A stretch of DNA of 64,000 nucleotides from the sequence record PP534475.1. One strand, 5' to 3'. This document shows, in pieces, positions 2,467 to 11,837 of this stretch. The notes beneath the pieces were generated by a model. The model did not search any database, was not told the DNA's origin, and saw only the letters and a list, made by a program, of their open reading frames with translations. The stretch comes from Escherichia phage YJin-2024a. Both the position numbers and the translations under genes were made by a program. How positions within the stretch are numbered: the first letter of the stretch is position 1; every line of letters begins with the position of its first letter.

Positions 2467-2590
2467 TCAAGCAATCAAATTTTTTAACTTTTTAGAGAAA
2501 AATCATAGGGCACTTAAGGATAGCAGATAAGTGGTGAGGACCAAAATTTGTGACCCCACTAAAAATCCGGGGGTAATTTTTAAAGACCCC

Positions 2591-2619
2591 TTGACATTTT
2601 CGCTGGGGTAGTGTAAAGT
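2591..2619 (+). promoter_or_regulatory. sigma70-type promoter TTGACA-17-TAAAGT
   Basis: Consensus -35, 17-nt spacer, near-consensus -10; AGGAGG RBS 8 nt before ATG at 2682. Confidence 0.6.
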
Positions 2620-2681
2620 ATATGTTATGGATGAGTGATCAAAGAGACACACATTTTCTATATACTAGGAGGTGTCAAAAA

Positions 2682-3674
2682 ATGACAGAAGAAGTAGCTA
2701 AGAGTCCTGAGACCGTCGCTAGCGTTGCAGCAGAACTGCACCGTCACGAGGAATCAGATAAGAAAAAGTGGGAGAAGGTCAGAGCCTACGAAGAGAAACA
2801 TCGTGAACACGATGAAGATGATGAAGAAGATGACGATGATGAGTATTGTCATAAATATGGAAAACGTAAAATGCAAGAACCAGTAAACGTATTCACTAGT
2901 GGCTTCCCTGGCCTAATGGGTGGTTACCCAGCAAACGCAGGTGCTTTCGGTGGTGAAGGTATGGGACTATTCGGAGCTATCCTAATCGGTGCTCTATTAA
3001 CAGGCGGATTCGGTGGTTTCGGTGGATTCGGTGGACGTGGTGTAGTTGGTGAAGGTACCGCAGTTGATGCAGTACTTCAGAACCAAGATACCGCTAGTAT
3101 TCTAGCAGCTATTAACACTACTCGTACAGAGGCTAACCAGGGTACTGGAGCTGTTTTAAGCGCAGTTAATAATGGTTTTAGCCAGACATCCCAAAACCAG
3201 AGCCGTGATACTCAGTCTGTACTAACTACGATCTATGGTACAGGTGCTAATCTGTCTAATCAGATCTGCCAGGAAACTCGCAACGTTATTCAGGGTCAGT
3301 TCGATCTTTCTCGCCAGATTGATCAAGCTTTCGCAGCTAATCAGATAGCTCGTGCACAAGATAAGTTTGATTCTGCACAGATCGCTTTCCAGCAGACTTT
3401 ACAAACTAATAACCAGTTTGCCGCTGTTCAGGCTCAGATGTGTGCTAACCAGAACTCTCTGGAACGTCAGATCGCTGAATGTTGCTGTGAACTTCAGACT
3501 GCGATTGCTGGTGTAACTACTGCGCGTATCCAGGATGAGTTAGACGCGTGTCGTCTACGTGAAGCAATCGCTGCGGGTAGCGGTGCTAACGGTCAGGTAA
3601 TTAATCAAATCGCTTTAAGTCTTGGTGCTATCACTCAGACTCTGGCTGGTCTGCAGGCTAAACTGCCGGCTTAA
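2682..3674 (+). CDS. membrane protein: acidic N-terminus, glycine-zipper segment, Gln/Asn/Thr-rich Cys-containing C-terminus
   Basis: Start moved to ATG 2682 because of the RBS; GGFGGFGGFGG hydrophobic Gly-zipper; DEDDEEDDDDE acidic tract; no recognisable family. Confidence 0.6.
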   Translation: MTEEVAKSPETVASVAAELHRHEESDKKKWEKVRAYEEKHREHDEDDEEDDDDEYCHKYGKRKMQEPVNVFTSGFPGLMGGYPANAGAFGGEGMGLFGAILIGALLTGGFGGFGGFGGRGVVGEGTAVDAVLQNQDTASILAAINTTRTEANQGTGAVLSAVNNGFSQTSQNQSRDTQSVLTTIYGTGANLSNQICQETRNVIQGQFDLSRQIDQAFAANQIARAQDKFDSAQIAFQQTLQTNNQFAAVQAQMCANQNSLERQIAECCCELQTAIAGVTTARIQDELDACRLREAIAAGSGANGQVINQIALSLGAITQTLAGLQAKLPA

Positions 3675-3695
3675 TATTAAGGGGAGGAGCCCATT

Positions 3696-4112
3696 ATGAG
3701 TAAATATGGTTTTGTAAATAACGGACTTAATCAAAGTATGGGCTCCCAGCAGCCCGTTCCGGGTCTGGATAACCCCTACTTACAACAGTTGCAACAGCGT
3801 TTAGCAGAAGCGCAACAGATGCAGCAACAACTCCAGCAAAACCCTGGAAGTGTAAGTCCTATGCAAATGATGCAGCAAATGAGCGGGCAGTCGCAAATGC
3901 CTCAACAAATGCAGCAACAGATGCCGCAGCAGCAAGTTCAGCAACAAACCCAACAACCGCAGGTTTCTGCGGAGGGACAGGCAGTACTAGCCCTTTTCGA
4001 AGACTTCGCAAAGACAGAGGATGGGAAACAGCTTGTATCACTTATGGGTAAGTTTAATAGCTTCTGCCAAAGCCAAGTTGCAAAAGCTCAAAATGGTGGT
4101 AATAACTCCTAA
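3696..4112 (+). CDS. Gln-rich low-complexity protein
   Basis: 138 aa with PQQMQQQMPQQQVQQQTQQPQ tract; GGAGG RBS upstream. Confidence 0.55.
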   Translation: MSKYGFVNNGLNQSMGSQQPVPGLDNPYLQQLQQRLAEAQQMQQQLQQNPGSVSPMQMMQQMSGQSQMPQQMQQQMPQQQVQQQTQQPQVSAEGQAVLALFEDFAKTEDGKQLVSLMGKFNSFCQSQVAKAQNGGNNS

Positions 4113-4121
4113 GGAGAAATT

Positions 4122-4316
4122 ATGTGTTGCAGAAAATCTGTTTCGTGCTGCCCAATGCCTGTAGCACGTTGTTGCTCTCCAGCAATGTTTACGCAAATAC
4201 CGGCGTTCAATCCGTTTGCCTTTAAGCCTACTCTTATCCTGCCCCCTAGAGTAGATTTTCAGTCAAGATTGGCCTCCCGTATGGGTGGTTGCTGTACACC
4301 GAGAGTGTGGTTCTAA
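4122..4316 (+). CDS. small Cys-rich hypothetical protein
   Basis: 64 aa with several CC pairs; last ORF before the terminator; may not be coding. Confidence 0.3.
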   Translation: MCCRKSVSCCPMPVARCCSPAMFTQIPAFNPFAFKPTLILPPRVDFQSRLASRMGGCCTPRVWF

Positions 4317-4329
4317 ACCAAAAACAAAA

Positions 4330-4362
4330 GCCCCTGCCGAAAGGTAAGGGGCTTTTTCTTTT
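4330..4362 (+). terminator. intrinsic terminator
   Basis: GCCCCT...AGGGGC hairpin with inner GAAA loop followed by TTTTTCTTTT. Confidence 0.7.
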
Positions 4363-4365
4363 GCC

Positions 4366-4408
4366 TTAAATACAGAAAAGCCCTGCGCTCTCCAGGAAAC
4401 GCAGGGCT
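4366..4408 (-). terminator. intrinsic terminator for the convergent SPFH gene
   Basis: 8-bp GC-rich hairpin GCCCTGCG/CGCAGGGC followed on the minus strand by TTTTCTGTATTT. Confidence 0.65.
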
Positions 4409-4432
4409 TACTTCAGATGTTACATGCGGGTA

Positions 4433-5380
4433 TTATTTATTACGCATATCCATAATCATTTGGCCATCGTAACCAGTTCCCACTACTGTTTGCGGTACAC
4501 CACCTTGGTATTTCTGAGCACGAATCATTTCGACTTCCAGTTGTTTCCAACGAATCATCTCAGGAGTAATGGTACGTTGCAGTGCGGCGTTAGCTTCAGC
4601 TTCTTTCTTAGCTGCATACAGTTTAGCATCTGCATCACGTTCGTTAGCAATAGCTTGGTTATTACGAGCTTCGCGATCTGCTTCTGCTTGTTTAACCTTC
4701 TGCTGTGCTTCTTGTTCAACACGAGCCAACTCAGCTTTTGCAGCATTAACTTGCTCTTCACGAACTTTGGTATTCTGTACCTGTTCCATGATTACTGGAG
4801 GCAGAGTAATATCCTGAAGGAATACCTGCTTAACTGTGTAACCATATGGGCGTGCATACTCTTCAACTTCTTGTTGAATTGCAGTTTGCAATTGAGCCTG
4901 AATTTTAGCATCAAACAAATCTTGTGCTTTAGGTACAGACTTACCAAACTCACGAATAGTAGACAGTAATTTTTCAGTTACATACTTGTCTAGCGCCTGA
5001 TCCTGAGTACCTGCGTTAATGCGGTTAATCGGTGCCTTAGAACCATCAAACTGCAACATAACAGTCAGGTCAACAGTGGATTTAAACTTATCCTGACTAG
5101 GAACCTGAAGTTTATCTAATTTTAGAGCAATATCTTTAGTACTAAAAGTATCGAAAGAAGCAAAAGGATTTACAATATGAAAGCCGGGTAATACTGGGCT
5201 AGGGTCAACTTTACCCAGGAAAGTCTGGGTTTTAACAGTACCGTCTTGAACAACAGTATAGGAGTTAAGGGCCAGAACTAAACCTACCAAACCAACTGCA
5301 GCACCAATACCCCAACGTTTGATATTACGCATCAATTTTTGCTCATAAGTCAGTTCTTTAGTGTTTTTAGTAGCAAACAT
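4433..5380 (-). CDS. SPFH/band-7 (prohibitin/HflKC-like) membrane protein
   Basis: N-terminal TM helix, SPFH-like core, long Ala/Glu/Gln-rich coiled coil (AKAELARVEQEAQQKVKQAEADREARNNQ). Confidence 0.65.
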   Translation of the reverse strand: MFATKNTKELTYEQKLMRNIKRWGIGAAVGLVGLVLALNSYTVVQDGTVKTQTFLGKVDPSPVLPGFHIVNPFASFDTFSTKDIALKLDKLQVPSQDKFKSTVDLTVMLQFDGSKAPINRINAGTQDQALDKYVTEKLLSTIREFGKSVPKAQDLFDAKIQAQLQTAIQQEVEEYARPYGYTVKQVFLQDITLPPVIMEQVQNTKVREEQVNAAKAELARVEQEAQQKVKQAEADREARNNQAIANERDADAKLYAAKKEAEANAALQRTITPEMIRWKQLEVEMIRAQKYQGGVPQTVVGTGYDGQMIMDMRNK

Positions 5381-5414
5381 ATATTTCCTTTGTTTTAGTT
5401 ACAGTTAATAAAAT

Positions 5415-5489
5415 TGGCCGAGGTGACAGGATTCGAACCTGCATAAAGGAATTTAGAAGACTCCTGCCTCTCCCTTAGACTACACCCCG
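5415..5489 (-). tRNA. tRNA-Arg (anticodon TCT)
   Basis: Acceptor CGGGGTG/CACCTCG, D-arm GTCT-AAGGGAG-AGGC, anticodon stem GGAGT/ATTCC with loop CTTCTAA, T-arm GCAGG-TTCGAAT-CCTGT, CCA. Confidence 0.7.
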
Positions 5490-6286
5490 TTTAAGTATTT
5501 TTAAGAACTCTCGTAAAAACTCTTAAAAATACAGACGATACCGGGAGAGTCATAAGTCTCACTCATTAAGTATTTCAAGACAAAATACAGTAACGTCTAT
5601 TATTTTCCAGTTTAAGTCAGGGTGACTTAGTGGTTATGTCCTGCGGTATATTGAGGACTCGGTTAGGCTTGGGGTCATGACTTCCCACCTTTTGCTGCTA
5701 CTCAACAGGAGTTATCGCGAATTACCTGTGCTATTGTGCACCATTAGTGACATCTCTCATGTCAGCATTTCCCACTTTGTGGATAGCTTGAAAAACTACT
5801 CCGATATGGAGAAAGAACTTCACTATCCTAGAATACCTTCTAAAGTTCTTCTTTAGCCTGGACATAGTTAAATCGTAATAAAACTATTCAGCAGACTGGT
5901 TGGTTAGTCTGGAACCAACTACCGCGTGGTTTAGGCAGTGCGCAACTAACCTCGGAAGCTTTTACATTAAAAGCACCAGTTATCCAGTTCTTACCGACCG
6001 TAGGACTCGAACCTACATCTTCCACCAGTTACGGCTTGATAATACCAATTATACTAGGACGGCAGTGTTACTACATAAGTGATTTCCACACCCCACTATT
6101 TATAAATTAGAGAAGAGTTTAGGGGAGAGGTTTCAGACGCCTCATTTTACACGTTCTAGCCACTAACCGGGATTGCCGCCCCCTGTGTACTAGTTTTACA
6201 ACTAACCCACCGACTCTATTCAATGCGCTCCGGTTGGGATTCTGCACTCAGCGTAATCGGCTCGCTGTTCTCTAATTTATGAATAT

Positions 6287-6315
6287 ATTATACAGAATTT
6301 AAAGGCATTTAGCAA
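6287..6315 (-). promoter_or_regulatory. T5-type early promoter (TTGCTA-17-TATAAT) firing into the ORF-free region 5490-6280
   Basis: Minus-strand consensus hexamers with AT-rich upstream element; -35 lies 9 nt after the stop of the 6324-6767 gene. Confidence 0.6.
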
Positions 6316-6323
6316 ATAAATTT

Positions 6324-6767
6324 TTAATTAAATTCGCCAGCAATCTGAGCAGCAGTACCGCCATCATAACGCCCAGGAAATTCTTCCTTAATCGCTTTCA
6401 TCAGCATACCCTTTGTAATTCCAGGGTTTAGCTTAACTAATTCTGCAAAGTATTTACGAATCTCAGTATCAGATAACTGAGGAGGCAGATACTCCTGCAA
6501 CCACTTATTTAGAATGTATTCATACTGAGCGGACTGCAAGCTATAACTATCAAGATCTTGACCATGAAGTTTAGCTTTCATCTGGTTAATGCTTTTTAGT
6601 TGCGCTTTGAGATAAGACACAAATTGTTCAGAAGTGATGAAATCTTTATCAATACGCTGAAGATCCCCGATTATGGTCTGATAGCTTTTAGCGACTTCTT
6701 TATCAGAACCATTAAACTTAGAATCCTGCAAAGCTCTACGCAAAACATCTAAAATATTCTCTTCCAT
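6324..6767 (-). CDS. YqeY/GatB-C-terminal-domain-like protein
   Basis: C-terminal GMLMKAIKEEFPGRYDGGTAAQIAGEF resembles the GatB/YqeY motif. Confidence 0.5.
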   Translation of the reverse strand: MEENILDVLRRALQDSKFNGSDKEVAKSYQTIIGDLQRIDKDFITSEQFVSYLKAQLKSINQMKAKLHGQDLDSYSLQSAQYEYILNKWLQEYLPPQLSDTEIRKYFAELVKLNPGITKGMLMKAIKEEFPGRYDGGTAAQIAGEFN

Positions 6768-6937
6768 TATTTCATTCCTAACGCTTGGTTAAAAGATTGT
6801 TCTGTCATAACTGCTGAGACTTTGGCGAAATCAAACTTTTTAGGGTTTGTAGTGATTTCAGCAACGTTAGAAGTTTTAACAGTTTTCGTAGTACGAATAC
6901 CGCGAGTGTTAACACCAATAATTACAACTGATTTCAT
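6767..6937 (-). CDS. small hypothetical protein (56 aa)
   Basis: ORF below track threshold; stop overlaps next start (TAATG); promoter at 6969-6997 upstream. Confidence 0.35.
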   Translation of the reverse strand: MKSVVIIGVNTRGIRTTKTVKTSNVAEITTNPKKFDFAKVSAVMTEQSFNQALGMK

Positions 6938-6968
6938 ATTTCGCTTCCTCTCATTAATTTATGGAAGT

Positions 6969-6997
6969 ATTATACGGAAATTTAAATATTTAAGCAA
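6969..6997 (-). promoter_or_regulatory. T5-type early promoter TTGCTT-17-TATAAT
   Basis: Consensus hexamers on the minus strand with AT-rich upstream region. Confidence 0.6.
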
Positions 6998-7005
6998 GTA
7001 AATTT

Positions 7006-7473
7006 TTAAGTTTTAGTGACAACAGGTTTATAGAATGTATGTCCCTTAATCTTAGTTGTTTTCTTAAATTTCTTTGTCCAGTAAGGTTTATCTTTACCAC
7101 TATGGAAGTATAGTGCTCCATATGTAGGATCTTGTGGTAAATCAACGTAGTATATCACTCTAGCTAAATTCTTAGCGGTTTGCCAAGCCTCATCAGTTTT
7201 ATCAACTTTTGGTCTCTTAGATACCCAAGAGAACTGGTTAGACTGATATACTACTTTACAGTAGGAATCTGGGAATTTACCGGAGTTTACACGGTTTTTA
7301 GTAACATGTGCAATCGCCGTCATTCCCTTTATGCCCTCACCACGACTCTCGAAATAGATATTTTTAGCAATGCAATCTATTTCTTTTGCATCGTGCGATG
7401 CCTGACTACTAAAGCTGAAGGTAAGGGCAGCTACTAAAAGCAAAGCTGCCTTCATTCTTTTTACTCCTGCCAA
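7006..7473 (-). CDS. secreted SleB-family cell-wall hydrolase
   Basis: Signal peptide MKAALLLVAALTFSFSSQA; NIYFESRGEGIKGMTAIAHVTKNRV matches the SleB hydrolase motif. Confidence 0.6.
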   Translation of the reverse strand: MAGVKRMKAALLLVAALTFSFSSQASHDAKEIDCIAKNIYFESRGEGIKGMTAIAHVTKNRVNSGKFPDSYCKVVYQSNQFSWVSKRPKVDKTDEAWQTAKNLARVIYYVDLPQDPTYGALYFHSGKDKPYWTKKFKKTTKIKGHTFYKPVVTKT

Positions 7474-7778
7474 TCATATTCAACACGATTGGGATTTTCT
7501 TTATACCCTAAGTCAAGCAAATCATTACGCATAGTTTGCTTAGCTACTGGGTTCGAGGTTACTAGTACCACTTTCTTTGGTCTCTGCCCAAATTCTAAGA
7601 GTAAACGAAGAATTTGATAACCTTCCATACCATCTACAGCTAAGTCATTATCCATATAAATGAAGTGGCCTGTGGTATCAGTTTTATTCAGAAACTCTAC
7701 AGCGGCTTCTGGGGTTCGAATGATAATGTCCATTCCGTGAAGATTACGCACATCATCAATCAAAATATGAAAAGTCAT
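7461..7778 (-). CDS. CheY-like receiver (REC)/flavodoxin-fold protein
   Basis: HILIDD, YMDNDLAVDGMEGYQIL and VVLVTSN align to REC Asp-pair, phospho-acceptor and Thr positions; overlaps hydrolase gene by 13 nt. Confidence 0.45.
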   Translation of the reverse strand: MTFHILIDDVRNLHGMDIIIRTPEAAVEFLNKTDTTGHFIYMDNDLAVDGMEGYQILRLLLEFGQRPKKVVLVTSNPVAKQTMRNDLLDLGYKENPNRVEYDWQE

Positions 7779-8220
7779 AATAGCCTCGTTTCATCAATTT
7801 AAAAATATATTATACATATAATTTAGTAGATTAGCAAATACATTTTTAAATTGTGAAACTAGTAAACCGATAAACAGCCTAGAGGCGCCACAGGCCATAT
7901 CTTATGAGCCATGTACCTTTGATCTAGGGTTTGAATCATCAACGAATACTTTGCATCTTTTAGCTTTAGAAGTTTAGAAGTTTGAGTTCTTTAAACTTTT
8001 CAGCTTTCATACTTAAATGTTGATCTTTGAAGTTGTGTCGGTAATATCAACGACGCTTTGTTCTTACGTGTCAGCTTAAAAGGCTGGTGTAATAAACATA
8101 ATCTCCAATAGATTATACTTTATAGTATGGTCAGCGGTCTTATTTAACCTCGTATTTCAACCGCTGCTGCGAGGTAAGATGCTTGGGCTTTCGTCTACCG
8201 ATTTACTAGCTTTTAAATTA

Positions 8221-8859
8221 TTACTCTACTTCAATGAAGGTAGAGGCGTTAGACTCGGACAGAACAAAGTCAACATTTGTTGCAAAGTCCTGGTATTCCT
8301 CGTCATGTTGCTTAATCAGCTTCTCCAGTTCCAGCGGATCAATCAAGAATGGAGTATTCTTGAGTTCCAGCAGGTTGAGCTGCATTTTAACTTCATCTTC
8401 GGAAGTTTTCTTATCGCGGGTAGCCATGCTATCCTGCAAACGCTCATATTTAGCGTCAAACTGTGCTTTCTGCGTATTAAACTTAACCGTAGCGGCATGG
8501 AACTGCTTACGCATGTTAGCCAGCAGCTGAGCTTTAAGCTCCATAGAACGCTTAGCTTCAATTGCTTCCGCAACAGTCATCTTACGAGAACCAATCTCAA
8601 CGATTGTTTCTGCATTGCTCTTAATCAGAGCAGATTTGATACTATCACGCTTAGACATCATATCCAGCAGAGACTGGAAATCAGTCTTAATACGAGTAGA
8701 CAGATCGGCTACTTCGATTGCAGCGCCAACTACAACCTGGTTTTTATCCTTACCTTCACCAACAGCGATCAGAAGCTGCTGTTCAGTAGCTTTACGGATT
8801 TTAGCTTCCAGAGATTTGATAGTTGCCAGAGCACGAGTTTTAGAAATACGAGTAGTCAT
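8221..8859 (-). CDS. hypothetical coiled-coil protein
   Basis: 212-aa ORF, no recognisable motif. Confidence 0.5.
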   Translation of the reverse strand: MTTRISKTRALATIKSLEAKIRKATEQQLLIAVGEGKDKNQVVVGAAIEVADLSTRIKTDFQSLLDMMSKRDSIKSALIKSNAETIVEIGSRKMTVAEAIEAKRSMELKAQLLANMRKQFHAATVKFNTQKAQFDAKYERLQDSMATRDKKTSEDEVKMQLNLLELKNTPFLIDPLELEKLIKQHDEEYQDFATNVDFVLSESNASTFIEVE

Positions 8860-8912
8860 TATTTGCTTCCTTATATGAAGTTTGAGATTTGAATTTGTTT
8901 AAATTTGGTCTA

Positions 8913-9095
8913 TTACAGACCAATTGCCAGCAGAGTGCGCAGAACAGTATCGTTACTGTTATCAATTTTAGGATTAGCACGATTTAGTAGATTAAAGATT
9001 TTCTGGATACCTGATTGACGTTCAGCCATACGACGGATACCCAGATCACGAGTAGCTTTCTTACCATTTTTACGAACATTTTTAGATACTGGCAT
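8913..9095 (-). CDS. small basic hypothetical protein
   Basis: 60-aa Lys/Arg-rich ORF. Confidence 0.4.
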   Translation of the reverse strand: MPVSKNVRKNGKKATRDLGIRRMAERQSGIQKIFNLLNRANPKIDNSNDTVLRTLLAIGL

Positions 9096-9165
9096 ATTTG
9101 TTTTCCTTTTATTGTTTTCTCAAATTTATGAATATATTATACAGAATTTTGGAGCCGGAAGCAAA

Positions 9166-9867
9166 TCAAATTTTCATTTTTTCGATCATAGCTGCAACAC
9201 AATAGCTCTCAACTAAGGCATCGAATGCTGGGTCGTGCTTAACCGGATAGATCCCATAACGAATAGTGTCCATCTTCTCCATTTTAGCTATTGCCCAGCT
9301 AATACCTTCGGTCTCTAGAGCTTTATAACTGTATCCAGCTTGCATCCAGAGATTACGAAGAGATCGAACATTGCCCAAATTCCAGAATTTCCACGGAACT
9401 ACCTCTTCATTGGTTCCAGCATGGAACGTATTTGCAGAGTAGATAGTCATATCAAACTCTGGGCCATTGCCATAATACAAAGCATTTTCGCCTAGAGCCA
9501 ACTCCATAATATTTTGAGCCATAGAGAAGGCAGCATAGTTTGAGCCTAATTTATTAGTGCAATGATGTTTACCATTTTGGAAGGCAATCAGTTTTGGATT
9601 ACGTTCCTTCATAGCTTCCATAATGTGGATAGCAGACGGACTATTTTTAGCTTGATCCATCCAGAATGCTAGAGTAGATGCTGTAACTTTGGCACCAGAA
9701 TTAAGTTGATCTTGCACATCCAAAGTAACAAATACTAGATCAGGGTCTTTATCAATTCCATGCATAGCCACAAAAGCGAAAGAAGGCATTGCGATATGAG
9801 TAGTACCACAATCTCCTGGAGTTCCTAGAGATTCAATATCTAGCATACCAAATGGTTTTACTTTCAT
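9166..9867 (-). CDS. DEDDh-family 3'-5' exonuclease
   Basis: Exo I motif GMLDIESLG and C-terminal HDPAFDALVES (H-x4-D). Confidence 0.6.
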   Translation of the reverse strand: MKVKPFGMLDIESLGTPGDCGTTHIAMPSFAFVAMHGIDKDPDLVFVTLDVQDQLNSGAKVTASTLAFWMDQAKNSPSAIHIMEAMKERNPKLIAFQNGKHHCTNKLGSNYAAFSMAQNIMELALGENALYYGNGPEFDMTIYSANTFHAGTNEEVVPWKFWNLGNVRSLRNLWMQAGYSYKALETEGISWAIAKMEKMDTIRYGIYPVKHDPAFDALVESYCVAAMIEKMKI

Positions 9868-9895
9868 AACTTATCCTTTATTGTGTAGAAAACTA

Positions 9896-10117
9896 TTAAA
9901 GAGCTGTCTCTTTAATAGACTCCCACTTCTTGGGGTCTTTAAAACCAGGAAGCATATCCTCACTGACATCCCAGTTCTCTTCCATATAGTGGTCATCTAA
10001 GTCTAACTCATCCACTGCTAAATCCATTATCTCATGACTAGAAAGTCGTGTGTAATCCCTAGCTGACTTATGAGTACTAGCACGGTTAAAATCATTCTTT
10101 ACTACAAAATTACGCAT
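9896..10117 (-). CDS. hypothetical acidic protein
   Basis: 73-aa ORF bounded by hairpin elements. Confidence 0.45.
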   Translation of the reverse strand: MRNFVVKNDFNRASTHKSARDYTRLSSHEIMDLAVDELDLDDHYMEENWDVSEDMLPGFKDPKKWESIKETAL

Positions 10118-10119
10118 AG

Positions 10120-10148
10120 TTTCTCCAAATAAGAGGGGCTTTCGCCCC
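10120..10148 (-). terminator. GNRA-tetraloop hairpin terminator
   Basis: Minus-strand GGGGC-GAAA-GCCCC followed by CTCTTATTT. Confidence 0.55.
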
Positions 10149-10158
10149 CTGATTTAAA

Positions 10159-10374
10159 TCACTTGCCCAGCAGTTTAAGGATATTTTCCATAATAGTTTG
10201 GGCAGATTTTTCACTCTTGTTGGTTTCAGCCAACTTTAAAGCGAGTTCTTCCTGCTGTTTCTGAATATCAGCAGCGATTTTTTGATCAGCCTCAATACGA
10301 GCTTGAAGCTCATCAGTGATAGTGCTAAAGGAAGCAACGATTTCAGTAACAGAACGTGGTTTCTTAGAGAACAT
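10159..10374 (-). CDS. hypothetical coiled-coil protein
   Basis: 71-aa ORF flanked on both sides by GGGGC-GAAA-GCCCC hairpins. Confidence 0.45.
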   Translation of the reverse strand: MFSKKPRSVTEIVASFSTITDELQARIEADQKIAADIQKQQEELALKLAETNKSEKSAQTIMENILKLLGK

Positions 10375-10438
10375 AAAAAATATCCTTGATTAGTTAGAGA
10401 ATTGGTCGATTGTAGGGGCTTTCGCCCCTATTTACCTG

Positions 10439-10954
10439 TTACTTCGCTTTACGCTTGCGAGCTGGTTTAGCAGATTTACGAGCAGAATCACCAGTGAACT
10501 TAATGCCTACACCATAACACAGAGCACGAACATTATCTTTACTATACTCTACGCCAAAGATATTTGGCTTAACAGAGCCAAACTGTCCACGAGTATCACG
10601 CAATACATCTGCTGTTGGTTTACGCTTCTGGTTAACTGCCTTCTCATAGTCTTTCATAGACATACCATTACGAGAGAACAATTCAGCCCCAGCGTTGAAG
10701 CTCAGGGAAACTGGGACAGATTTGTGGCCGTAATTTTCTACATACATAACCATTTTGTAGGATTTACGAGTAGCATTTTTAGCCTTAGGCTTCTGACGAA
10801 TCGGAGCCGGATTATTCAGTGCTTGAGCAGCCTGAGCATCGGTAGGATGCTTACGCAGGTGGCGTTCCAGACGAGCTTTGCGATTAGCCTCAGTCTTCGG
10901 GAAAGTTTTAACTGCCGGAGCTGCTTGAGTTTTTGCGTTTTTCTGCTTAGCCAT
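10439..10954 (-). CDS. Lys-rich basic protein, possible nucleic-acid binding
   Basis: Start moved to MAKQKN because of upstream AAGGAAAA RBS; both termini Lys/Arg-rich. Confidence 0.45.
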   Translation of the reverse strand: MAKQKNAKTQAAPAVKTFPKTEANRKARLERHLRKHPTDAQAAQALNNPAPIRQKPKAKNATRKSYKMVMYVENYGHKSVPVSLSFNAGAELFSRNGMSMKDYEKAVNQKRKPTADVLRDTRGQFGSVKPNIFGVEYSKDNVRALCYGVGIKFTGDSARKSAKPARKRKAK

Positions 10955-11030
10955 TATTTGTTTTCCTTTTTTGTTTATCAATTTATGAAGTATATTATAC
11001 GAGAATTTGAAGCGTTTAGCAAATGAATTT

Positions 11031-11480
11031 TTAATTTATTAACTGTAAGCTTCTTTTAATTTCAGACCTTACCTGCATCAAAAGAACTCCTAAAGTATTA
11101 TCCCCGATGCCTCGGCAAACACCCCAATATGTATCTCCCCAGGTATTTCCTTCGATCAAAGTTGCATTTTTTGTTGCTAACAGTTTGTCTCTCAAATCAG
11201 GAATTGCAAACTTTAACCGTAAAAGCTCTAGCATTACATCATCTTTTACCTTATCCCAGTCAGAGCGCAGAGTTAATTTACGTCCTCTACGTTTGGCAAC
11301 TCCTGCGTTTAGGGAGCGTAGTACATGGGCTACATTATCTTTTTGGTCTGATTTCATAGCCTGAAAAGCATGTTCTACAGTATCAGCATGCCATATTTCA
11401 TTTAGATATTCGAAAGTAATTGGTGATAAATAAAAGTTTGATAAGAAACTATAAGTACCTTTAAATTCAGTAATCTTCAT
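11031..11480 (-). CDS. NADAR (YbiA-like) domain protein
   Basis: LSNFY, EHAFQAMK and GNTWGDTYWGVCRGIGDNTLGVLLMQVR align with E. coli YbiA (FSNF, EHYFQAQK, ENDAYWGDGGHGKGKNRLGYLLMELR). Confidence 0.75.
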   Translation of the reverse strand: MKITEFKGTYSFLSNFYLSPITFEYLNEIWHADTVEHAFQAMKSDQKDNVAHVLRSLNAGVAKRRGRKLTLRSDWDKVKDDVMLELLRLKFAIPDLRDKLLATKNATLIEGNTWGDTYWGVCRGIGDNTLGVLLMQVRSEIKRSLQLIN

Positions 11481-11761
11481 TTTTTACGCCCCGCATCTTT
11501 AGCCTCCTCGGCGGTATAGATATACTGATAAGCCCCTTTGGAGTAGGCTGGAGCAGTACACATTTTCTTACGCTCAATCTCTTCTTGAGCTTTTCTTTCG
11601 CGTTCCGCTAATTCTTCGTCCAGATAAACTAAACGTTGTTCTGGAGGAGGTGGAAGACGTGTTTCTGGCTCACCAATATTAGCCTTTCTTATTTGACGAG
11701 GCGATTGTGCACGTTTTCTCAATGGTTTAAATCCTAATGAATTTGAGTTATAAATCCGCAT
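11477..11761 (-). CDS. hypothetical protein
   Basis: 94-aa ORF overlapping the NADAR start by 4 nt. Confidence 0.4.
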   Translation of the reverse strand: MRIYNSNSLGFKPLRKRAQSPRQIRKANIGEPETRLPPPPEQRLVYLDEELAERERKAQEEIERKKMCTAPAYSKGAYQYIYTAEEAKDAGRKK

Positions 11762-11837
11762 AAAGCCCTCCTCACTTTCAATACGAATATTATACTAAAT
11801 TAGAGGGCTTTAAGCAAGAAAATTTTTAATTTATTTA

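Follow-up and report, generated by a model that had tools for sequence, protein, structure and literature searches.

The window analyzed here, a stretch of 64,000 nucleotides from Escherichia phage YJin-2024a (sequence record PP534475.1), carries on its minus strand, at positions 4433-5380, a gene for a protein of the SPFH/band-7 superfamily, the ortholog of gene T5.080 of phage T5. This open reading frame (ORF) is a functional gene under strong purifying selection, not a chance ORF, and the gene has spread laterally among phages, reaching at least five lineages with 55-83% identity. We consider it moderately probable that it is an early accessory gene whose product would be an SPFH ring, held in the inner membrane by a single pass and facing the periplasm. 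The SPFH identification is right, yet it was public before: among T5-like phages the T5.080 ortholog is a catalogued accessory gene of an ordinary kind, and because both the gene and its domain stand in public annotation, the finding as such adds little. Its interest lies elsewhere. Structural work on SPFH cages has been very active since 2022 (HflK/C, QmcA, flotillin, prohibitin, erlin, stomatin), and what they enclose, and why, is debated. The phage copy offers a convenient minimal model, namely one gene without a partner that is predicted to face the periplasm, is under purifying selection and is exchanged among unrelated phage families.

That the window encodes an SPFH/band-7 protein, as the original prediction had claimed, is borne out by a profile match, by matches in the PDB and by a full-length fold match. 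Two of the checks that the original prediction had named, a profile search against SPFH/Band_7 models and a structure prediction, came out in its favor. Pfam Band_7 (PF01145) matches residues 52-225 at E=2.5e-17, with 63.9 bits against a cut-off of 23.6, and its profile is covered at positions 13-176 of 176; the PHROG_200 profile matches at E=1.5e-85. With the single sequence as query, the best PDB sequence match is E. coli QmcA (E=1.9e-6), followed by human prohibitin-2 (E=1.3e-4, residues 60-241). When the PDB was searched with a profile made from an alignment of 19 family sequences, QmcA was found at E=3.4e-7, and HflC appeared only marginally, at E=0.006 and over the coiled coil alone, with no stretch passing by itself. 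No NCBIfam model matches the protein at E<=0.01, although this library names bacterial SPFH families, and at the same threshold no defence-system model of PADLOC-DB matches it either.

The same alignment of 19 sequences was used for an AlphaFold2 model of the single chain, which has a mean predicted local distance difference test score (pLDDT) of 80. The model consists, in order, of a helix (residues 12-38), a beta/alpha core (41-192), a helix of 76 residues (195-270), a further helix (273-291) and two short C-terminal strands. In a Foldseek search, 260-307 columns of the model align to subunits of SPFH cages, with E values from 5e-14 to 5e-10. The best value is 4.7e-14 for erlin, 4e-13 for prohibitin (PHB1/2), 7e-12 for HflK/C, 1e-11 for stomatin and 5e-10 for QmcA; there were 63 PDB matches at E<=0.001, and the best 50 of these 63 are SPFH-family or vault proteins. 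As modeled, the chain thus has the SPFH alpha/beta fold and the long helical region that define the superfamily. The gene can be divided as follows.

5315-5380, minus strand: residues 1-22, K/R-rich N-terminal tail, predicted to be cytoplasmic (charge counts)
5264-5314, minus strand: residues 23-39, predicted single transmembrane anchor WGIGAAVGLVGLVLALN (hydropathy maximum, model helix 12-38, aligned N-termini)
4805-5260, minus strand: residues 41-192, SPFH alpha/beta core (AlphaFold2 pLDDT 80-90, Foldseek, Pfam)
4508-4798, minus strand: residues 195-291, Ala/Glu/Gln-rich helix 195-270 plus helix 273-291, the coiled-coil (CC1/CC2) wall of SPFH cages
4436-4507, minus strand: residues 292-315, conserved C-terminal GGVPQTVVG..YDGQMIMDMR segment with two short strands

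Both a transmembrane anchor and a long Ala/Glu/Gln coiled coil had been predicted from the letters alone, and both are found. Residues 195-291, which make up the two helices, contain 20% Ala, 14% Glu and 11% Gln. The strands that follow them, at residues 299-302 and 308-311 (pLDDT below 50-70), lie where solved SPFH cages have their cap. The anchor corresponds to the one hydrophobic segment of the protein: residues 23-39 (WGIGAAVGLVGLVLALN) are its sole window of 17 amino acids with a mean Kyte-Doolittle value above 1.8, and N-terminal attachment to the membrane through one predicted transmembrane helix is again what the superfamily leads one to expect.

The charges around this segment suggest how the protein is oriented. 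Residues 1-22 contain six K/R and two D/E (net +4), and the 22 residues after the transmembrane segment contain two of each (net 0). The bias is shared by the family: among 256 members of at least 250 amino acids, a comparison of the 15 residues on either side of the segment puts the more positive stretch on the N-terminal side in 197 and on the C-terminal side in 25. In addition, at least seven family clusters (P0114, P0124, P0134, P0172, P0186, P0242 and P0267), among them one from a Morganella phage (P0114) and one from Aeromonas (P0124), have a canonical lipoprotein signal peptide instead of the transmembrane helix. This signal peptide (for example LLLGSC|SIETVP) sits where the helix of the other members ends. 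Because these variants would be exported and anchored by lipid, they indicate that the SPFH domain works outside the cytoplasm. Based on the charge bias and these homologs, the predicted topology of the T5.080 ortholog is N-in and C-out, with the SPFH domain in the periplasm. In the lipobox-bearing clusters P0114, P0124, P0134, P0172, P0242 and P0267, the residue at +2 after the lipidated Cys is Ser or Ala and never Asp. The E. coli sorting rule would send lipoproteins with Ser or Ala at this position to the outer membrane, which, if these relatives are sorted in that way, would be an unusual place for an SPFH ring.

The lipobox of these relatives also bears on the name under which the family is filed. 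PHROG_200 and many GenBank records call it 'lipoprotein', and for some members this may be apt. For the T5.080 ortholog the label is almost certainly wrong, and we have rejected it: the window protein has no lipobox and not a single cysteine and so cannot be a lipoprotein, and 18 of the 19 aligned, diverse phage homologs have the K/R tail and transmembrane helix without a lipobox.

The gene call itself is straightforward.

4433-5380, minus strand: SPFH/band-7 coding sequence, an ATG-started ORF of 315 amino acids plus stop, T5.080 ortholog
5386-5390, minus strand: Shine-Dalgarno AAGGA, read from the sequence, 5 nt upstream of the ATG

Met17 was dropped as an alternative start, as it lacks a Shine-Dalgarno sequence whereas Met1 has AAGGA, and a large antisense ORF at 4424-4969 on the plus strand was taken to be a shadow of the SPFH gene, which is conserved on the opposite strand. 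Across its whole length, region 2500-8000 shares 98.9% identity with Salmonella phage vB_SenS_S124; it is matched in 450 phage records, nearly all of them T5-like phages of Salmonella or Escherichia. The well-annotated relatives of the window belong to Tequintavirus (Demerecviridae), and the finding therefore concerns a T5-like phage genome. In T5 itself, T5.080 (YP_006908.1) shares 95% amino acid identity with the window protein and occupies the same place between tRNA-Arg and terminator; we see no substantive difference between the two. Nonsynonymous over synonymous divergence (dN/dS) is 0.027/0.396 against T5, 0.014/0.343 against AKFV33 and 0.055/0.730 against a 91%-identical T5-like phage, so that the ratio among T5-like phages is about 0.04-0.07. 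It is these low ratios, together with homologs in 723 phage records, that identify the ORF as a functional gene.

The domain has been recognized before. The entry 'SPFH domain/Band 7 family' was given to 44RR ORF098c, Aeh1 ORF064c and RB43 ORF139c in 2006 (PMC1524935). The T5 record notes a single transmembrane domain for T5.080 and its similarity to Aeh1 ORF064c and 44RR ORF098c, and several GenBank records read 'SPFH domain-containing protein'; the closest relatives of the window are labeled 'hypothetical protein' or 'lipoprotein'.

The 723 records, found by tblastn, span Demerecviridae, Straboviridae (Slopekvirus, RB43, Aeromonas T4-likes and Aeh1), Grimontviridae, Schitoviridae and unclassified contigs of 85-153 kb. 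Identity to the window protein is 90-100% for T5-like homologs, about 80-84% over residues 39-313 for Slopekvirus/KP15, RB43 and related T4-likes, about 74-75% for J3S-type Grimontviridae, about 63% for Aeromonas T4-likes, and 33-36% for Aeh1 and a Vibrio phage of the Schitoviridae; IMG/VR adds further types of 85-153 kb contigs at 54-78%. Between lineages dS is saturated while dN stays at about 0.2, which indicates that the transfers of the SPFH gene are old and that the protein is under constraint. In a full HMMER scan against 1.84 billion representatives, 333 clusters were found at E<=1e-10, and among the clusters listed those that look full length measure about 300 amino acids.

Homologs are also present on bacterial chromosomes, at 55-60% identity in Providencia and Morganella and at 33-41% in Methylococcaceae, Methylophaga and other Gammaproteobacteria. 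These single-gene SPFH proteins belong to the same subfamily as the phage protein and have its length and architecture; what sets the chromosomal genes apart is their stable context among housekeeping genes, such as trpB-trpA-accD-folC or ndh for the Providencia and environmental gammaproteobacterial homologs. In a neighbor-joining tree, the Morganellaceae genes cluster with the phage genes, apart from an environmental clade. No DNA homolog of the SPFH gene was found in 5,426 complete E. coli genomes, and no homolog of its protein among the plasmids of PLSDB.

Expression can be approximated from the elements that flank the gene.

6287-6315, minus strand: sigma-70 type early promoter TTGCTA-17-TATAAT (promoter scan, 10/12 match), counterpart of T5 P16-17
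5490-6280, minus strand: counterpart of the T5 stable RNA 'RNAX' (T5 annotation), between promoter and tRNA-Arg
5415-5489, minus strand: tRNA-Arg(UCU) (ARAGORN; Rfam 49.3 bits; T5 annotation)
4378-4409, minus strand: intrinsic terminator of the SPFH unit (13-bp stem plus T run; z=-3.8)

The promoter at 6287-6315 is likely the start of an RNAX-tRNA-SPFH transcript, in which 34 nt separate tRNA-Arg(UCU) from the SPFH start codon downstream of it, the two belonging to one transcription unit. The order of promoter, RNAX counterpart, tRNA-Arg, coding sequence and terminator agrees with the T5 map, and the terminator is conserved in T5 and AKFV33. An mRNA that comes last, behind stable RNA and tRNA, in a transcript from a host-type promoter suggests early expression; the match to this promoter and the annotated promoter map of T5 thus indicate that the SPFH gene is probably expressed early. 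Two further observations concern these flanking elements. The terminator contains GAGCGCA, which T5 annotation marks as the 'major DNA single-chain interruption' (a nick; NC_005859 39746/39747). Within RNAX, which in T5 measures 719 nt, a tRNA-like element at 5992-6063 on the minus strand reaches 34.2 bits with the Rfam tRNA model (threshold 29) and is not called by ARAGORN; because of this element, RNAX may be, at least in part, a degenerate or unusual tRNA precursor.

T5.080 is dispensable for growth on laboratory E. coli. In a dCas13d knock-down screen of T5 (CRISPRi-ART) it was scored 'Not Fit', as were T5.077-079 and T5.081-084 (PMC11879866, supplementary file 16). The HIDEN-SEQ preprint covers T4, Bas37 and Bas54 and includes no T5-like phage, and in the literature we searched, no study addresses the function of a phage SPFH protein. 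Purifying selection, lateral spread and dispensability in the laboratory together point to a conditional accessory gene, and the protein is likely a conditional fitness factor that acts in host range, lysis timing or counter-defence.

Based on these data, we propose that the T5.080 ortholog would be anchored in the inner membrane by one pass, with its SPFH domain, coiled-coil wall and C-terminal cap segment facing the periplasm. By analogy with all full-length SPFH proteins solved to date, it would most likely self-assemble into a homo-oligomeric ring or dome. Such a ring could fence off a patch of the host inner membrane, holding or excluding membrane proteins, and its role would be the conditional control of envelope or membrane integrity during infection and not a core step of replication. 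Several points weigh against this proposal. Its predicted orientation draws on the positive-inside rule and on homologs. Ring assembly is argued by analogy, from a full-length match to cage subunits, and the model is of a single chain in which the cap segment has a low pLDDT of 42-50. The envelope or membrane-integrity role is a guess that draws on weak synteny, and Vibrio phage 1.026.O (Schitoviridae) and Aeh1 have no envelope-related neighbor annotated beside the SPFH gene. Finally, 'Not Fit' describes one host under one condition, and a knock-down is not a deletion.

The original prediction had instead pointed to host membrane proteostasis through FtsH-type proteases. In its fuller form, the phage ring would be HflK/C- or prohibitin-like and would enclose or compete for FtsH, re-tuning the turnover of membrane proteins. 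To our knowledge, HflK/C is the only E. coli SPFH pair on the periplasmic side; Chiba, Ito and Akiyama reportedly placed the SPFH domains of HflK/C in the periplasm and QmcA in the opposite orientation in 2006. The predicted arrangement of the phage protein resembles that of HflK/C in its N-in single transmembrane segment, periplasmic SPFH domain, long CC1/CC2 helices and C-terminal cap segment. Its fold also aligns over the full length, 282-307 columns at E of about 1e-11, with subunits of the HflK/C-FtsH complex (7vhq, 7wi3, 9cz2), and prohibitin-2, the second-best PDB sequence match, is a partner of the mitochondrial FtsH homolog. However, the phage gene is single, where HflK and HflC are two adjacent paralogs that form a heteromer, and its product lacks the long cytoplasmic N-terminus of HflK. 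It has no NCBIfam family-model match, and its profile similarity to HflC is the marginal one described above, restricted to low-complexity coiled coil. The fold is equally similar to erlin, stomatin and QmcA, none of which acts through FtsH. We know of no T5 function that is FtsH-dependent. The knock-down of T5.080 also carried no fitness cost in E. coli (PMC11879866). Taken together, these points leave the FtsH/proteostasis reading, if anything, weakened, and we regard it as unlikely.

The QmcA-YbbJ complex (PDB 8z5g) is similar in size and domain order and includes its best PDB sequence match, but it is the Ala/Glu-rich helix that contributes most of that score. QmcA is oriented toward the cytoplasm, and its partner is encoded by a neighboring NfeD gene. 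The phage protein is predicted to have the opposite orientation, and unlike for QmcA-YbbJ and YqiK-YqiJ, no NfeD was found among the neighbors scanned; the phage gene is flanked by a tRNA upstream and a terminator downstream. Prohibitin and erlin are the top structural matches of the model, and prohibitin faces a compartment that is topologically equivalent to the periplasm; yet identity is 14-20% and the eukaryotic complexes are heteromeric. Common descent with prohibitin and erlin is indicated at the superfamily level and no closer.

We examined neighboring genes by calling and clustering the ORFs of 113 loci and annotating the cluster representatives. The SPFH gene stands alone, and its neighbors vary by lineage. 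A universal partner gene was discarded as a candidate, as no neighbor is common to all phage lineages among these loci; no Pfam match to NfeD was found in the flanking ORFs of the window or of the other lineages scanned, and no phage locus examined contains a second SPFH gene. Only two neighbors recur, a SleB-like hydrolase (Hydrolase_2) and the RI antiholin (PF24205). The first of these is found in the window, next to a receiver-domain protein.

7006-7473, minus strand: SleB-like cell-wall hydrolase with signal peptide, T5.083 homolog (Pfam Hydrolase_2, E=3.8e-25)
7461-7778, minus strand: cREC_REC receiver-domain protein, T5.084 homolog (Pfam)

In three genome types of differing gene order, Hydrolase_2 lies on the same strand as the SPFH gene and 0.4-1.6 kb from it. 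The order is cREC_REC, Hydrolase_2, DUF7616, YqeY, RNAX, tRNA, SPFH in T5-like phages; SPFH, a 71-amino-acid ORF, cREC_REC, a multi-transmembrane ORF, Hydrolase_2 in the J3S type; and SPFH, a 117-amino-acid repeat protein, Hydrolase_2 in the 153-kb contig type (L030/L032). The RI antiholin is the neighbor in T4-like phages: in Slopekvirus and the RB43 type, the SPFH gene follows directly after RI antiholin and DUF5856, and in the T4-likes of Aeromonas its distance from these two is about four genes.

These neighbors raise the possibility that the ring is an envelope or lysis-timing accessory, which would restrain periplasmic and inner-membrane lysis factors until the right time. Its candidate clients would be the Sec-exported SleB-like hydrolase in T5-, J3S- and L030-like genomes and the holin/RI-antiholin pair in T4-like ones. 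Because the window hydrolase has a signal peptide, it and the SPFH protein would meet in the periplasm, and both the recurrence of Hydrolase_2 and the adjacency of RI antiholin and DUF5856 are in keeping with this idea. The hydrolase family is, however, far wider than the SPFH gene, with 1,283 phage records against 723, and the majority of its records lack the SPFH gene; we dropped strict co-occurrence of the two genes for this reason. Among sampled records that have the hydrolase alone, large phages (90-200 kb) of Escherichia, Pseudomonas, Acinetobacter and other hosts are numerous. A single transferred block that includes cREC_REC may be the origin of all three syntenic cases, and no lysis-type neighbor is annotated in Vibrio phage 1.026.O or Aeh1. 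Moreover, the tk-rI interval of T4-likes is an insertion hot spot for unrelated accessory genes, and the known endolysin and holin of T5 lie elsewhere in its genome. On this evidence, we think an envelope or lysis-timing role rather unlikely, though the likeliest of the alternatives considered here.

Some features of these loci deserve mention in their own right. The cREC_REC gene and the signal-peptide Hydrolase_2 co-travel beside the SPFH gene, at 7006-7778 on the minus strand of the window and at 2599-3713 of the J3S-type locus L005, and the J3S block also adjoins genes for an RtcB ligase and an RNA ligase. In three Aeromonas T4-like loci (L047-L049), a protein of 72-79 amino acids with the type IV pilin methylation motif GFTLIELMV is encoded directly downstream of the SPFH gene, followed by a Gly-rich lipoprotein ending in GGFGKSGGFGSSGG and then a 400-amino-acid protein. 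These last two may be a YgiB/YgiC pair.

A further alternative comes from the chromosomal homologs of Morganella (55-58% identity). There, the genes that adjoin the SPFH gene downstream, on its own strand, encode first one or two peptides with double-glycine leaders and then an HlyD-type fusion protein and an ABC exporter with a C39 peptidase. In loci L060, L061, L064 and L065, at about 7100-11800 in locus coordinates, the peptides have 91-96 amino acids and the leader MKEL..EIE.VSGAG, and the peptides, HlyD protein and exporter make up a cluster of the microcin type. The SPFH gene keeps these companions in two distinct upstream settings, and immunity genes usually sit at such a position beside peptide and exporter genes. 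By extension, the phage ring could be an immunity-like device that protects the membrane or excludes intruders, acting against bacteriocins or microcins, the DNA entry of superinfecting phages or the pore effectors of abortive infection. A gene that is dispensable in a defence-poor laboratory host, yet conserved and laterally spread, has the usual profile of counter-defence or exclusion. Against this, the microcin linkage is limited to one genus, the other chromosomal homologs lie among housekeeping genes (trpBA-accD-folC, ndh), PADLOC has no model that matches the SPFH protein, and our literature search turned up no SPFH protein shown to act in immunity or exclusion. We therefore judge this explanation quite unlikely.

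A broader proposal, which we offer as a speculation with a low probability of being right, is that phages of several gammaproteobacterial genera share a portable, single-gene, periplasm-facing SPFH cage for envelope protection or lysis timing. This cage would come without NfeD or a paralog and would be anchored by either a transmembrane helix or a lipid. It could sequester a wall hydrolase or a holin/antiholin, or it could shield the inner membrane from bacteriocins, superinfection and abortive-infection effectors. If true, such a module would be the first function assigned to a viral SPFH protein.

The last claim of the original prediction concerned the convergence of the SPFH gene with a cassette of Gly-zipper membrane proteins, which faces it from the plus strand.

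2622-4316, plus strand: Gly-zipper cassette, homologs of T5.077, T5.078 and T5.079 (PHROG 8119 and 7894)
4325-4360, strand not assigned: second hairpin, bidirectional terminator of the T5.077-079 cassette (absent in AKFV33)

The geometry is as described: the three ORFs of the cassette (2622-3674, 3696-4112 and 4122-4316, all on the plus strand) end about 120 nt from the SPFH stop codon, with two terminator hairpins between them. The functional link that had been drawn from it does not hold up. In T5 the cassette is its own transcription unit, from promoter P12 to its own terminator, and AKFV33 lacks the entire cassette together with the second hairpin but retains the SPFH gene, and the terminator of that gene, intact. 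Among 29 T5-like loci that bear the SPFH gene, all three cassette genes are present in 19, two in one and none in nine, and in the comparison of clustered loci the cassette was not found in any other phage lineage with the SPFH gene. The cassette is thus an independent indel unit outside the SPFH unit. Because it forms a separate unit and is absent from 9/29 loci, a functional link between cassette and SPFH gene is not supported, and the convergence is geometry with no evidence for shared function.

The 350-amino-acid protein of the cassette includes the stretch GGFGGFGGFGG, and its C-terminal half is rich in Q/N/T and carries a CCC motif. No Pfam match was found for it, and neither of the two large cassette proteins has a match in NCBIfam or PADLOC. 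Beyond the cassette, between it and a tRNA-Ser gene, lies an ORF of 170 amino acids at 1954-2466 on the minus strand, in the position of T5.076. Public records describe T5.076 as 'DNA primase' or as Toprim/OLD-like, and the CRISPRi-ART supplement lists it as 'anti-defense, Known, Semi-Fit' (PMC11879866).

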